From IMG/VR virus record IMGVR_UViG_3300008259_003073: a DNA stretch of 64,000 bases; one strand, 5' to 3'. The translations under genes were made by a program, and so were the position numbers. The first letter of the stretch is position 1, and each line of letters opens with the position of its first letter. This document shows positions 59,970 to 64,000 of the stretch, in pieces. The notes under the pieces are model-generated. The model was not told where the DNA came from. It did not search any database and saw only the letters and a program-made list of their open reading frames with translations. Source of the stretch: a virus. Its lineage: Duplodnaviria; Caudoviricetes.

Positions 59970-60500
59970 ATGAGTAAGAAAATCAAAATCCAAATCAGTA
60001 ACCAAACTTTCGAACTTCCTTCCAACGCATTGTGGTTCGATAAGTGGAAGAACGAACCATACATCAATATGAATGCGAAGAACACCGCATCTCTTATCAA
60101 ACAATTTGTGAAGAAAAACTTCCCTAATATAAAAGTGTGGGCAACCTCTGATGTATATAGTGGAGGTTCTTCGGTAAGAGTAAATGTTTCCAACTCCGAT
60201 GGTTCATCCGTATCGGAAAAAATTTACAAAGAAATCAAAGGATTTTCAGATTCCTTTAAAGCTGGATACTTCGATGGTATGAGTGATTGTTATGAGTACT
60301 ACGATGAGAAATTAAAAACAGATAATGGTACTTCCTTAAAATCCTTCCCCTCTTATATCTTCGTAGAGAATAAGGCAACTTGGGGTTCGGTAGAGTACTG
60401 GGTAAATGAAATTAAGAACGAGGGTAGAACCTTGGAACAAGAAATTACTTATATGAAAGCTGGTATGAAAGATAAAGTAGTAGCAGCACTTTCTATGTAA
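59970..60500 (+). CDS. LPD29-like (large polyvalent protein-associated domain) protein
   Basis: ASLIKQFVKKNFPNIKV..YSGGSSVRV..GYFDGMSDCY. Confidence 0.7.
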   Translation: MSKKIKIQISNQTFELPSNALWFDKWKNEPYINMNAKNTASLIKQFVKKNFPNIKVWATSDVYSGGSSVRVNVSNSDGSSVSEKIYKEIKGFSDSFKAGYFDGMSDCYEYYDEKLKTDNGTSLKSFPSYIFVENKATWGSVEYWVNEIKNEGRTLEQEITYMKAGMKDKVVAALSM

Positions 60501-60576
60501 TAAATAACGATTAAAACGGTGTAAGACTTCATAGGTAATGAAAGATACTCGAGCAACCGTATAGTTATTTTTTCAA

Positions 60577-60613
60577 TCGGCGGGGGTTGGGGGGCCTCCG
60601 TCGAACTTTTTTT
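60577..60613 (+). terminator. Rho-independent terminator
   Basis: TCGGCGGGGG-TTGGGGGG-CCTCCGTCGA then ACTTTTTTT. Confidence 0.8.
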
Positions 60614-60644
60614 AAGAAAAATTTTTTATATCCCAATTGATAGT

Positions 60645-61280
60645 TTATAACAATTTCACTTTGTTATTTACAACATACTCATAATACTCCCTATCTCCCC
60701 TCATTAAGGTAAGCATCCTCTCCCATTGAATTGGATATTCACTCTTTACCATTTCTACAATCCACTCTTTCGATTTCCAATCTTCAATGTGATGGAAACT
60801 ATATTCATCTTTAATATACTCTATATCCCATCCCAATTTAGCTAGGAACTCCGTAGTTTCCGTAATTTGTAGAATCTTAAACCGTTTGATATTATGGTTC
60901 TTATATAGAAAGTGTATTTTTTTAAAAAATGAACCACTCCAATGAGTAGTACCAGTAGGTGAAGCAAATTCATCCACTATTGAACTCACCTTTTCCGTAT
61001 CCGAGTAGCAACTAACCAATTCCGTATGCAATGCACTTTGTAACCATTCATACGGGTCTCTCACCACTAACCATTCTACACCCTTCCACAAATCGTAATC
61101 CTCAATTCGGGATGGTGTTCCTTCTACCGTTTGTGTAATATCCGATTGTTGGGGTAAACACGATACAATCCGTTCCATGTACCCGACTTGCCGTTCGGCC
61201 GATTTCACACATTTAGAAAAATAACGAGTTCCACATTTTGCGGGTACGGCGATATTCCTATTGAATATCTCTATTACCAT
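60645..61280 (-). CDS. Sulfotransferase-like protein (Sulfotransfer_2-type motifs)
   Basis: VPAKCGTRYF (5'-PSB-like), VVRDPYEWLQSA (3'-PB-like), HW. Confidence 0.7.
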   Translation of the reverse strand: MVIEIFNRNIAVPAKCGTRYFSKCVKSAERQVGYMERIVSCLPQQSDITQTVEGTPSRIEDYDLWKGVEWLVVRDPYEWLQSALHTELVSCYSDTEKVSSIVDEFASPTGTTHWSGSFFKKIHFLYKNHNIKRFKILQITETTEFLAKLGWDIEYIKDEYSFHHIEDWKSKEWIVEMVKSEYPIQWERMLTLMRGDREYYEYVVNNKVKLL

Positions 61281-61399
61281 CTCTTATCCCTTCGAAGTAG
61301 CCAGATGGGAAAGTATATCAACCCAGTCACGATAACTGCTCCTACCCCCAAAAGAATGAGTGTAGAGACCAATGCGAATTTAACCCAGCTTACCATCAT
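61274..61399 (-). CDS. Small single-pass membrane peptide (41 aa)
   Basis: Hand translation MMVSWVKFALVSTLILLGVGAVIVTGLIYFPIWLLRRDKRW*; ATGA overlap with upstream stop. Confidence 0.6.
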   Translation of the reverse strand: MMVSWVKFALVSTLILLGVGAVIVTGLIYFPIWLLRRDKRW

Positions 61400-62352
61400 C
61401 TCCTGCTCATACTTTCAGTTATTCTTCGATTCCTTTCTACATCTCCTATCACCCCATTTAAATCCGCTACCACTTCCGTTACGGCTAGAGATGCACTCAT
61501 AGGTGTAATGGTTTCCGTTACGGTAGTTGAATTCGGTGTTTCCACCACACTAACCGTTTCGGTTTCTTTTCTCACCGATTGTCGTGGTGCAGATTCTTGA
61601 GTATCCTCTGTAGATGCTACCCGATTTTGTATCTGAATCTTACCCTTATTGATTGGTGGTACTCCGTTATAGAATGTATCCTTAATACTATTGAAATCCT
61701 TTCTTAACTCTGTTAACCTCTCACCTAATGACCCCAAAAATTCTTTGAGTTTGGCAGTATCCAATTTGCCATCCTCCTGCGCAGTGGTTACGTTTAGTGC
61801 CTGTATAGAGTATAGAGTATCATCCCCCAAATTCATATCCCATAGAGAATAAGAATCTCCTGGCCGTTGAGCACCTTCCTTTAAAGTGTAGTTCAATTGG
61901 TTAATCAAACCTTTGGGAATTCCCATCTCCATCTCCGTTTCGTAAATGTATTCCACAGATTCAACCCCTGCGTTTAAGATTTTTTGGTCTTGCTCATCTC
62001 CACTCTTCACTAACTTCGATACATCTATCTTTATGATTGGAATGGAACTGCCTATGGGTTTGTTTTTAATCGTGCCGTTTTGTTGGAAATCCCAATGAGG
62101 GTTAGAGGATAATCCGATTCCTACATTAGTTGCTGGTGAAATCAAGTACTTATCATCAATCTGAATCACAATCCCATCAACTTCTAATACTGTATAAATC
62201 GATGAGTTGGGGATTGCCGTTCCTTCGGTTATAGTTATGGGAACAATCTCTCCGTTTACATTACCGTTGGGTGAATCCGAAACAGAGGAAACCAACCAAC
62301 CATCGTTAGTACGAATATATCTGTCTGGGTTTTGTACTGGTCTTACTTCCAT
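61396..62352 (-). CDS. Hypothetical protein
   Basis: 318 aa ORF, T/E-rich tail. Confidence 0.65.
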   Translation of the reverse strand: MEVRPVQNPDRYIRTNDGWLVSSVSDSPNGNVNGEIVPITITEGTAIPNSSIYTVLEVDGIVIQIDDKYLISPATNVGIGLSSNPHWDFQQNGTIKNKPIGSSIPIIKIDVSKLVKSGDEQDQKILNAGVESVEYIYETEMEMGIPKGLINQLNYTLKEGAQRPGDSYSLWDMNLGDDTLYSIQALNVTTAQEDGKLDTAKLKEFLGSLGERLTELRKDFNSIKDTFYNGVPPINKGKIQIQNRVASTEDTQESAPRQSVRKETETVSVVETPNSTTVTETITPMSASLAVTEVVADLNGVIGDVERNRRITESMSRR

Positions 62353-62665
62353 TTTCTTTCTTTGATTTTTTTAAGGAGTTGATGGTTTTCATCGCCTCTC
62401 TATATATAGTTAGTTCGGATATTTTCCTTTTACCCTTACTTCGTTTGATACGGTATAGTTCCCTTTGGAGGGTTTTGTATTCCCCGATTTCAATACATTC
62501 GGTTATGATTTTGTTAATCATCAAGTCGGAACTCATTCTTTTGTAGGTGGATTTATCAACCTCGCTTTTCGAATCCGTTAGAGGGGAAAACCTTACTGCG
62601 TTTGCAATACCTACGGATACTCCGAAATCGTTTGCCGTCTTTAAGTATACTTCCGTTTTTAACAT
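62306..62665 (-). CDS. Basic hypothetical protein
   Basis: 119 aa, Lys/Arg-rich C-terminus. Confidence 0.55.
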   Translation of the reverse strand: MLKTEVYLKTANDFGVSVGIANAVRFSPLTDSKSEVDKSTYKRMSSDLMINKIITECIEIGEYKTLQRELYRIKRSKGKRKISELTIYREAMKTINSLKKSKKENGSKTSTKPRQIYSY

Positions 62666-63064
62666 GCTTCGTTTTTGATTAGTTAATATCTACCTTTCTT
62701 TTCGTTAAGTAAAATGCTCGTGCTTGTCTTGCGAAGTGTGCGTTACCACATCTCGTTAGGTAATCCTCATCTGATTCTCCATCGATTCTAGCACAGGCTC
62801 TCTCAAACACTTTAATCAATAATTCCTTTAGTTTCATACTAATATATATCGAATTAGGTAAAAAGAAATCGGTTCATATAGGGGTTAATGTGTCAACATT
62901 AGTGTCAAAAAAGGGTTCCCACCACAAAAAAAGTCCCCCCGGTATTTAAACGAGTCCGACTGGGTCTTGGAGGGTTCCGCTTTTCCTAGCTACATGAAAC
63001 TCGTCAAACCCCTATTCGGATAACCGTATATTCGGATAGGCAAATATGCGAGTGTGTAGACGTG

Positions 63065-63092
63065 AAAAAACCTGCAGAGTTTCCTCCACAGG
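63065..63092 (-). terminator. Rho-independent terminator with GAAA tetraloop
   Basis: CCTGTGGAG-GAAA-CTCTGCAGG-TTTTTT. Confidence 0.85.
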
Positions 63093-63129
63093 TTGTACGA
63101 ATCTACTAGCTTTGAATGAGTTTTGTATG

Positions 63130-63321
63130 TTAAGCGAATGCCTCTTTGAGTATCCTCATTGCGGTTCGAATTTCGTTTAACCTCTCACTAGCAGCGTACT
63201 TTGGTTTACCATCTCTCATAACCCGAATCCTATTCACTAGGACAGATTCAGCTGACTCTAATACTACGAGGGCTTCATGCCTACGAGTTTCCACTTCTTG
63301 TACTTCTATAAAATTGCTCAT
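63130..63321 (-). CDS. Small hypothetical protein
   Basis: Likely start MSNFIEVQ at 63321 (track start 63354 abuts the terminator). Confidence 0.65.
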   Translation of the reverse strand: MSNFIEVQEVETRRHEALVVLESAESVLVNRIRVMRDGKPKYAASERLNEIRTAMRILKEAFA

Positions 63322-63353
63322 AATTATGTATATTATATTTTGTATGTTTTTCA

Positions 63354-63389
63354 AAAATAAAAAGGTGGGGGCCAGAAACCTCCACCTTT
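63354..63389 (-). terminator. Rho-independent terminator
   Basis: AAAGGTGGAGG-TTTCTGG-CCCCCACCTTT then TTATTTTT. Confidence 0.7.
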
Positions 63390-63459
63390 ATAGGCCTAGC
63401 TCATAGAGTAATAAGAATAGAGTATAAATCGAGAATAACCGTTTATATGAGCTAACCTT

Positions 63460-63501
63460 GAGCAGAGTGGGGAGTCGAACCCCAACTTACCTCTCTCCAC
63501 T
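63460..63501 (-). ncRNA. tRNA-like minihelix (acceptor stem + T arm, no D or anticodon arm)
   Basis: AGTGGAG-AGAGGTAAGT-TGGGG-TTCGACT-CCCCA-CTCTGCT-C. Confidence 0.5.
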
Positions 63502-63674
63502 TACTGTACTGCAGGTTCTACCACAGGGGCTTCAGCAGCGGTAGTATCTACTGTAGTCACTCCGGTAGTATCAGCTGCTACTGCAGTTGAGTCCGTAGTA
63601 CCTTCGGTAGTACCTTTACCTCCACATGCTACCATAAGAGATGCGAGGGCCAAAATTGCGATTACTTTTTTCAT
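63501..63674 (-). CDS. Small lipoprotein (57 aa), Bacteroidota-type
   Basis: Hand translation MKKVIAILALASLMVAC-GGKGTTEGTTDSTAVAADTTGVTTVDTTAAEAPVVEPAVQ*; lipobox MVAC. Confidence 0.85.
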   Translation of the reverse strand: MKKVIAILALASLMVACGGKGTTEGTTDSTAVAADTTGVTTVDTTAAEAPVVEPAVQ

Positions 63675-63740
63675 CTTTCTTTTGTTTGTGTAGTGAGTCC
63701 GTTGATATAGGTGGTACTCTTTGCCTATCTTATTGTGGTA

Positions 63741-63771
63741 TAAATATACGAAATAATTTCCATTATTCCAA
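63741..63771 (-). promoter_or_regulatory. Primary-sigma promoter with overlapping late motif
   Basis: TTG-N20-TATATTTA; ATATTTATA at 63739-63747. Confidence 0.7.
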
Positions 63772-63784
63772 GTACTTTCAAAAA

Positions 63785-64000
63785 TTAATGTCCAAGGGTA
63801 CGATTTACGTTATCTAGGTATATACCATCTATCTTGGGTTGGCTCTGGTTACTTAACCAACTACTAGCCTGTTGTTCCAGCTCTATGGCTGCCTCCATAT
63901 CCTTATGTAGGGCGGCTACTCCCTTAACTGCCTGGTATCCGTTAACTCGTAGTGCCTTCTTCTCTAGCTTCTCTCTTTCGAATGTGGAGATAAATCGGTA
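63785..64000 (-). CDS. Hypothetical protein, 5' end outside window
   Basis: Open frame ..YRFISTFEREKLEKKALRVNG..VNRTLGH* from window edge. Confidence 0.55.
   Translation of the reverse strand, partial: YRFISTFEREKLEKKALRVNGYQAVKGVAALHKDMEAAIELEQQASSWLSNQSQPKIDGIYLDNVNRTLGH

Follow-up and report, generated by a model that had tools for sequence, protein, structure and literature searches.

The window analysed here is a 64-kb stretch of DNA from a lake-water phage, and its genes point to a large myovirus-like phage. The region has a low GC content (about 30%), and nearly all genes are situated on the minus strand. A baseplate wedge protein encoded in the window has distant similarity to proteins of the Flavobacterium phage immuto and the Microcystis phage Mel-JY01. 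Close to one end of the window, the sequence predicts a compact minus-strand unit composed of a promoter, a 57-aa lipoprotein ORF, a tRNA or tRNA-like minihelix depending on the phage, a conserved structured RNA of ~100 nt, and a terminator. In the window, which carries the minihelix, the features are as follows.

63739–63771, minus strand: promoter-like motif TTGGAAT-N13-TCGTATATTTATA, unique in the window (0 expected)
63501–63674, minus strand: lipoprotein ORF of 57 aa from the ORF list, with a signal peptide, the lipobox LMVAC, and a Thr/Ala/Val-rich tail
63501–63461, minus strand: whole minihelix, a 7-bp acceptor-like stem, a 10-nt linker, and a 5-bp T stem with the loop TTCGACT
63501–63495, minus strand: 5' strand of the acceptor-like stem, AGTGGAG, from sequence reading; 100% paired across 8 variants
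63494–63485, minus strand: purine-rich linker of 10 nt, AGAGGTAAGT, from the alignment of variants
63484–63468, minus strand: T arm, a TGGGG/CCCCA stem with a TTCGACT loop, from sequence reading and the variant alignment
63484–63480 and 63472–63468, minus strand: T-stem strands TGGGG and CCCCA, respectively
63479–63473, minus strand: T loop TTCGACT
63467–63461, minus strand: 3' strand of the acceptor-like stem, CTCTGCT, whose last T is the former discriminator U73
63460–63458, minus strand: CAA trailer directly after the minihelix
63393–63457, minus strand: hairpin RNA just downstream of the minihelix, from RNAalifold on 15 lineages
63353–63389, minus strand: intrinsic-terminator-like stem-loop AAAGGTGGAGG...CCCCCACCTTT followed by a T run, from covariation

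The TTGGAAT-N13 promoter-like motif is also located upstream of the lipoprotein gene in the related contigs L003 and L012, and the second box in the relatives fits the Bacteroidota -7 pattern TAnnTTTG. From these sequences, we infer that TTGGAAT-N13-TCGTATATTTATA is a promoter of the Bacteroidota type. The lipoprotein gene encodes 51–58 aa in all relatives, carries DST/DTT motifs in its tail, and is always the first gene in the unit that contains the tRNA or the minihelix. In L003, the closest of the long relatives, an extra gene of ~133 aa with its own promoter motif (61–460) is situated upstream of the lipoprotein gene; the window does not possess it.

Downstream of the minihelix, the hairpin possesses an 8-bp closing stem, which can be extended, around a sequence-conserved interior of ~46 nt (GGTTATTCTCGATTTA ... 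TTATTAC). Within this interior, the stretches GGTTATTCTC(T)GATTTA and TTATTAC are near-invariant. Across 15 lineages with either the full tRNA or the minihelix, RNAalifold recovers 8 pairs in the closing stem, 5 of them with compensatory changes, and the hairpin also folds in the window RNA. In every lineage, it starts at most 6 nt past the discriminator. The terminator stem contains 13 covarying pairs and is followed by a T run in 15 of 15 lineages; a simple terminator scanner makes no call on the window, since one A.C mismatch interrupts the stem. Together, the hairpin and terminator region forms a conserved structured RNA of ~100 nt (63353–63457, minus strand; 1971–2069 in L012), which follows the tRNA or the minihelix in every lineage and matches no Rfam family. 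The next small gene downstream, of 63 aa, starts at 63321.

Structure and class of the minihelix

The TAA stop codon of the lipoprotein gene is located at 63503–63501, and its last A (63501) simultaneously serves as the first base of the acceptor-like stem. The pairs of this stem are, in order, A-U, G-C, U-G, G-U, G-C, A-U, and G-C, including two G-U pairs. By homology with the GCGGAGG of the full tRNA-Gly described below, tRNA position 1 is G63500, and A63501 pairs with the former discriminator U. The linker stands at the former site of the D arm, the anticodon arm, and the variable loop. A first-pass annotation of the letters alone had described the same stems, linker, and loop, down to the two G-U pairs and the CAA after them, and this description is exact on sequence reading. 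The D and anticodon arms, which it reported as absent, are indeed replaced by the 10 nt that separate the acceptor and T stems. ARAGORN calls no tRNA or tmRNA in the entire 64-kb window, as the same annotation had expected, and it calls no tRNA at the minihelix in the close relatives.

The minihelix is more than a chance likeness: its 23-mer is unique within the 64-kb window, with 0 occurrences expected, and homologous copies occupy the same place in related contigs. A covariance model built from 8 variants was searched with filters off against the window and the related loci. The window copy scores 67 bits and the next best match in the 64-kb window 9.9 bits, so that no second copy exists there; in 90 kb of related loci, no further copies are found beyond the homologous site and weak T-arm/acceptor matches in full tRNAs. 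A 34-aa ORF with a GTG start at 63396–63500 is rejected as coding, the variants differing in length (38, 40, 41, and 67 nt).

With regard to known families, the minihelix possesses the 7-bp acceptor stem, the 5-bp T stem, and the loop T54-T55-C56-R57-A58 of a canonical tRNA, but not the D arm or the anticodon arm with its 7-nt loop. It shares the genomic position and similar ends with a tRNA-Gly(UCC) gene, as a descendant of that gene should. On sequence, it also combines a tRNA-like fold with the motif GGTTCRANYCC inside an mRNA precursor, as in t-elements; the motif is matched by GGTTCGACTCC at 63481–63471, between the stop codon and the terminator of the unit. In the Rfam scan of the window, the only match is to the mascRNA model RF01684, at a sub-threshold 20.5 bits against a cut-off of 42.5 (E = 0.27). 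The RF00005 tRNA model gives the L003 copy 21.3 bits, under its 29-bit cut-off. The tRNA-like domain of a tmRNA, with its tag frame and pseudoknots, is rejected as a candidate, as there is neither an ARAGORN tmRNA nor an Rfam tmRNA match at E up to 10. By the criteria of these families themselves, the minihelix is outside the tRNA, mascRNA, and tmRNA families.

A blastn search of the 1.2-kb region against GenBank phages gives no match. The exact 21-mer of the minihelix has no match in IMG/VR, because loop position 59 and the 3' strand differ in the relatives, and a degenerate pattern recovers only the contig of L003. Against the genomes of 185,579 species, the exact 21-mer matches no tRNA, and its single match is a non-tRNA stretch in a high-GC Chloroflexota MAG. 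In temperate phages, attP cores frequently include a tRNA's T arm together with its 3' acceptor strand, and the minihelix might be such a core, copying the 3' end of a host tRNA gene. This origin is extremely unlikely given the lack of any tRNA match in those genomes. Furthermore, the 5' acceptor strand is present as well, the 145-kb relative encodes no tyrosine integrase (PF00589), the genes are those of a large myovirus-like phage, and relatives carry a complete, transcribed-looking tRNA gene at the site.

Descent from a tRNA-Gly gene

Relatives were collected via homologues of the downstream 63-aa protein (97 clusters) and of a 318-aa protein encoded nearby, and further ones via an unbiased pattern on the loop of the downstream hairpin, giving a total of about 55 contigs from lake metagenomes. 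In 15 of them, a full tRNA-Gly(UCC) of 70–71 nt, called by ARAGORN, occupies the same place (loci L012–L018, L020, L021, L049, and L053–L058), between the lipoprotein gene and the hairpin (loop GGTTATTCTC(T)GATTTA) with its terminator. It occurs as 7 sequence variants, plus an aberrant copy in L022. The anticodon stems are TCTGG/CCAGA, CCTGG/CTAGG, CCTAT/ATAGG, ACTGG/CCAGT, and CCTAG/CTAGG; since both the anticodon and the T stems covary, the full tRNA-Gly qualifies as a working gene. A GC-rich spacer hairpin, GCCGGTCC...GGACCGGT, separates the lipoprotein stop from the full tRNA and is missing from all loci in which stop codon and minihelix are fused. In L016, L018, and L053, the full tRNA (70 nt) is missing one T-stem base, and the L022 copy (893–962) has a rearranged anticodon arm and receives no ARAGORN call.

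The minihelix state is found in about 40 contigs, as 9 sequence variants. All variants but one are fused directly to the TAA. The exception, variant G (L038, 1287–1361, and L039), has a 4-nt spacer, GTTA, after the stop, so that fusion to the stop codon is common, not obligatory. Variant G also contains 28 inserted nt that separate the acceptor 5' strand from the linker and form an extra arm; the resulting three-armed tRNA-like fold has a z-score of -3.2 and no ARAGORN call. Variant A, that of the window, is common to L024, L026, L028, and L062. It is the most derived: compared with the commonest form (variant B), it carries two G-U pairs and one change each in the loop and the linker. The two G-U pairs are specific to variant A, the 3' strand being CTCCACT in most relatives.

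The two states agree at both ends. The 5' strand is GCGGAG(G) in the full tRNA and G(C/T)GGAG in the minihelix, the 3' end ...CGC-T-CAA of the full tRNA agrees with that of the minihelix, and both retain the discriminator T and the CAA trailer. By position and sequence, the phage tRNA-Gly(UCC) (RF00005) is the direct ancestor of the minihelix and shares with it the acceptor strand, the T arm, the discriminator U, and the CAA trailer; compared with this ancestor, the minihelix has neither anticodon nor D arm and cannot decode. On these sequence comparisons, the minihelix is almost certainly a former tRNA-Gly gene without positions ~8–42, which comprise the D arm and the anticodon arm.

In the tree of the 318-aa protein, a single branch with support of 99/97 splits 17 minihelix loci from 9 full-tRNA loci, and 98% of the bootstrap trees need a single state change. 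Meanwhile, the 119-aa and 318-aa proteins of the minihelix phages with variants E and F are 50–62% identical to those of the window, compared with 37–47% for the full-tRNA lineages. The root would lie on the full-tRNA side, because a 40-nt stub cannot regrow a covarying cloverleaf. One old deletion appears to be the simplest history compatible with these sequences. A net of about 30 nt, comprising the D and anticodon arms, would have gone with it, and the spacer hairpin before the tRNA would have been lost in the same event. Microhomology was considered as the cause of the deletion and dropped, as the junction could not be convincingly rebuilt from the sequences.

Variants E and F form the sister group of all other minihelix phages, yet they have the gene order of the full-tRNA phages. 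In both groups, a gene of 133–136 aa is located between the terminator and a gene of 59–69 aa (L012, 2097–2504; L040, 334–735; L045, 1096–1497), and it is absent from the window's branch. Two independent origins of the minihelix, with E/F set apart by this extra gene, are rejected on the 318-aa tree and the protein identities; the tree of the 133-aa protein itself is unresolved. Since a single origin is preferred, the extra gene was probably lost later, after the tRNA truncation, in the window's branch.

Conservation of the minihelix

Between distant members of the clade, the minihelix is more conserved than its surroundings. The window and variant D are 85% identical over the minihelix, compared with 66–70% over the flanks and 41–47% at four-fold sites (binomial P = 7e-7). 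For variants B and D, the identity is 90% over the minihelix and 66–69% over the flanks (binomial P = 1e-8, with a four-fold identity of 0.47 adopted for the test and not computed for that pair). The window and variants E/F are 73–76% identical over the minihelix, 60–70% over the flanks, and about 40–46% at four-fold sites (binomial P = 1e-5). Synonymous sites in the minihelix clade are near saturation, and the minihelix is not.

The substitutions also respect the structure. The acceptor helix is 100% paired in the 8 variants, pair 2:71 being U-A, U-G, or C-G, and G-C/G-U exchanges occur at two further acceptor pairs. The T stem is TGGGG/CCCCA or GTGGG/CCCAC (with an extra U-A) according to the group and is paired in both, and an A.A mismatch exists at the outer T-stem pair in variant D. 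The T loop is TTCGA-N-T in all variants, with 6 of 7 positions invariant and position 59 occupied by C, A, T, or G. Most variation is found in the linker, which is 8–10 nt long in the relatives and partly conserves the pattern A.RGG...G. By automatic count, only 1 pair is fully compensatory among the 8 variants, and 26 of 500 shuffles reach the covariation score; because the 5-bp and 6-bp T stems do not fit a common register in the MAFFT alignment, this count understates T-stem pairing in E/F. As independent substitutions are few, the comparison with synonymous sites and flanks carries most of the case, and by that comparison the minihelix has very probably been retained under selection. Conservation demonstrates constraint and leaves the constrained function unspecified.

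The first-pass annotation had also allowed for a decayed tRNA remnant. The full tRNA-Gly(UCC) of the relatives confirms the remnant; the decay is contradicted by pair-preserving changes and by conservation far above that of synonymous sites. A dead tRNA fragment, functionless and not yet decayed or deleted, is unlikely, although several observations speak for it. Relatives possess the full tRNA, and decay is seen elsewhere at the locus, as in the T-stem deletion of L016, L018, and L053 and the aberrant anticodon arm of L022. Furthermore, among close relatives, the minihelix is no more conserved than the flanks: the window copy differs from the commonest form at 4 of 40 positions, and at such a short distance it is no better conserved than its surroundings. 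The window copy also folds poorly. Against a functionless relic, the minihelix stays 73–90% identical, with the acceptor pairs and the T-loop consensus kept, while the proteins have diverged to 50–62% identity and four-fold sites approach saturation; the substitutions fall mainly within the linker and on position 59 of the loop.

The folding energy of the window copy has a z-score of -0.2 to -0.4, and thermodynamics alone does not single out the minihelix. Its minimum free energy fold is in a shifted register, with GAGAGAG pairing with CUCU.GC. The minihelix fold has -12.7 kcal/mol, compared with -13.8 kcal/mol for the minimum (a gap of 1.1 kcal/mol), and accounts for 3.5% of the ensemble, compared with 59% in variant B, the commonest among the relatives. 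Owing to the two G-U pairs, the linker can compete for the 3' strand in the window copy, which is the weakest folder among the variants. Variant A may be tolerated, helped by a protein, or starting to decay.

A possible processing signal between message and structured RNA

From its position in the unit, its sequence, and its analogy with known systems, we slightly favour the reading (probability roughly 0.55) that the minihelix acts as an RNase P or RNase Z signal that parts the lipoprotein mRNA from the downstream structured RNA. RNase P measures the stack of acceptor and T stems and needs the T loop, the D loop being dispensable (PMC4919913). In variants E and F, the helix contains 12 continuous pairs, 6 from the acceptor and 6 from the T stem; in the window's group, 6 and 5 pairs give 11, and the pair between the A of the stop codon and U73 supplies the twelfth. 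RNase Z and the CCA-adding enzyme also accept acceptor/T-arm minihelices.

In the phages with the full tRNA, the host RNase P and a 3' endonuclease would have to excise the tRNA, and the latter is probably RNase Z, since no CCA is encoded. Such excision would at once give the lipoprotein mRNA its 3' end and the downstream RNA its 5' end. In the window's clade, the decoding half would have become dispensable and been lost, and the enzyme-recognised half, a stack of about 12 bp capped by the T loop, would have been kept under purifying selection. The minihelix would then punctuate the transcript, separating the message from the RNA behind it and/or giving the mRNA 3' end a tRNA-like cap. Cutting by RNase P or RNase Z at the minihelix, and cutting as the reason for its retention, are presumed in this scheme. 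Bacterial RNase P might cut less efficiently or at a displaced site, given that A(-1) pairs with U73 and that no CCA is encoded.

A tRNA mimic for processing of the mRNA and release of the downstream RNA had been proposed in the first-pass annotation. The proposal is favoured by the conservation and by the covarying downstream hairpin, and the element originated as a tRNA gene. A full tRNA in relatives had been named beforehand as evidence against such a mimic. It is indeed present and decides the origin; the retention of the truncated form nevertheless favours a processing signal, because this form is old, apparently of single origin, conserved above synonymous sites, and pair-preserving, with an invariant T loop.

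Alternatively, the minihelix may be purely a 3' stabiliser, which replaces the spacer hairpin and blocks 3' exonucleases without recognition by tRNA enzymes. The absence of the spacer hairpin GCCGGTCC...GGACCGGT wherever the minihelix is fused to the stop agrees with such a replacement. A stabiliser, however, has no need for an invariant TTCGA-N-T loop or for a helix of ~12 bp interrupted at the tRNA 7/49 junction, and the unit is already closed by a strong terminator hairpin; this role is rather improbable.

A further candidate for the product is the excised minihelix of ~40 nt itself, as a CCA-tailed and possibly glycylated top half that binds or titrates host factors. Its partners might include tRNA-targeting toxins, defence nucleases, enzymes that use aminoacyl-tRNA, and EF-Tu, and processing would be only the route of making it. 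In its favour, the conservation constrains the RNA itself, beyond two cut sites, and the A.RGG...G pattern of the linker is partly kept. Variants E and F retain G1:C72, C2:G71, G3:C70, and U73, which we take to be the acceptor-end identity elements of bacterial tRNA-Gly. The window's clade, however, has U2:A71 or U2:G71 in place of C2:G71, so the glycine identity set is not conserved. Without an anticodon loop, the minihelix cannot decoy anticodon nucleases, one copy exists per genome, and the 145-kb relative (estimated to be 77% complete) encodes neither a CCA-adding enzyme nor any other tRNA gene. A function of the excised RNA is thus doubtful, and it is inseparable from the processing signal on the present data. 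A decoy for host defences, which the first-pass annotation had raised as well, finds neither support nor contradiction in these sequences. It is very unlikely that the excised minihelix is CCA-tailed and charged by a host synthetase, acting as a non-decoding aminoacyl carrier or an acceptor-end decoy besides marking the cut; if so, it would be a half-tRNA that the phage makes for a separate task, outliving the useless decoding half.

For the favoured processing signal, the closest likeness is found in the t-elements of plant mitochondria, which carry GGTTCRANYCC and whose positions match those of mRNA ends (Forner et al. 2007, PMC1920247). Both t-elements and the minihelix are tRNA-like, non-decoding, and part of mRNA precursors, contain GGTTCRANYCC, and are located next to or inside coding regions. 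The t-elements are believed to guide RNase P or RNase Z to the sites where mRNA termini arise (Hanic-Joyce et al. 1990; Forner et al. 2007), and canonical tRNAs do this job at other mitochondrial genes, as the full tRNA-Gly may in the phage relatives. The two differ in their setting, which is an organelle whose processing enzymes are protein-only or of eukaryote type for the t-elements and a phage of a bacterium for the minihelix; t-elements are mostly imperfect cloverleaves, compared with the two arms of the minihelix, and share no descent with it. In addition, t-element cleavage has been mapped, whereas the minihelix is known here from its sequence. By this comparison, the minihelix is best regarded as an analogue of the t-elements, not a family member.

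The mascRNA / MEN-beta RNA (RF01684) likewise possesses a tRNA-like structure at the 3' end of a longer transcript. There, an RNase P cut at the 5' side makes the 3' end of the upstream RNA, and the released small RNA receives CCA; however, this RNA is nuclear and eukaryotic, folds into a full cloverleaf-like shape, and has no homology to the minihelix. Synthetic acceptor/T-arm minihelices are reportedly substrates of RNase P, RNase Z, the CCA-adding enzyme, and some synthetases, in work attributed to McClain, Guerrier-Takada and Altman in 1987 and to the Schimmel laboratory. They comprise the same two tRNA domains, with about 12 stacked bp closed by a canonical T loop. Compared with them, the natural minihelix has a bulge of 9–10 nt between the 5' strands, no encoded CCA, and a -1 base able to pair with 73.

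Phage tRNA genes are usually discussed only as decoders, and a full-text literature search found no paper on such minihelix elements in phages of bacteria. The sister lineages constitute a natural experiment, in which one group holds a working tRNA-Gly and the other only the enzyme-recognised half, kept through synonymous saturation. This suggests that the processing role of a tRNA gene in an operon can be what selection holds, comparable to mitochondrial 'tRNA punctuation' and the plant t-elements. Such a signal would define the 5' end of the conserved, unannotated structured RNA of ~100 nt. Annotators also have grounds here to keep tRNA fragments even where tRNA finders turn them down.

Two minor observations concern the surroundings of the unit. 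The IMG/VR contigs L002 (21.9 kb) and L003 (145 kb) both break near the locus, one beginning 6 nt past the minihelix and the other ~730 nt upstream, where the repeated promoter motif occurs; the breaks could be due to repeats or to a nearby genome end. Meanwhile, the GC content reaches 39–40% at 60001–64000, compared with about 27–33% over most of the window, which suggests that the last 4 kb represent a module with a different history or different constraints.
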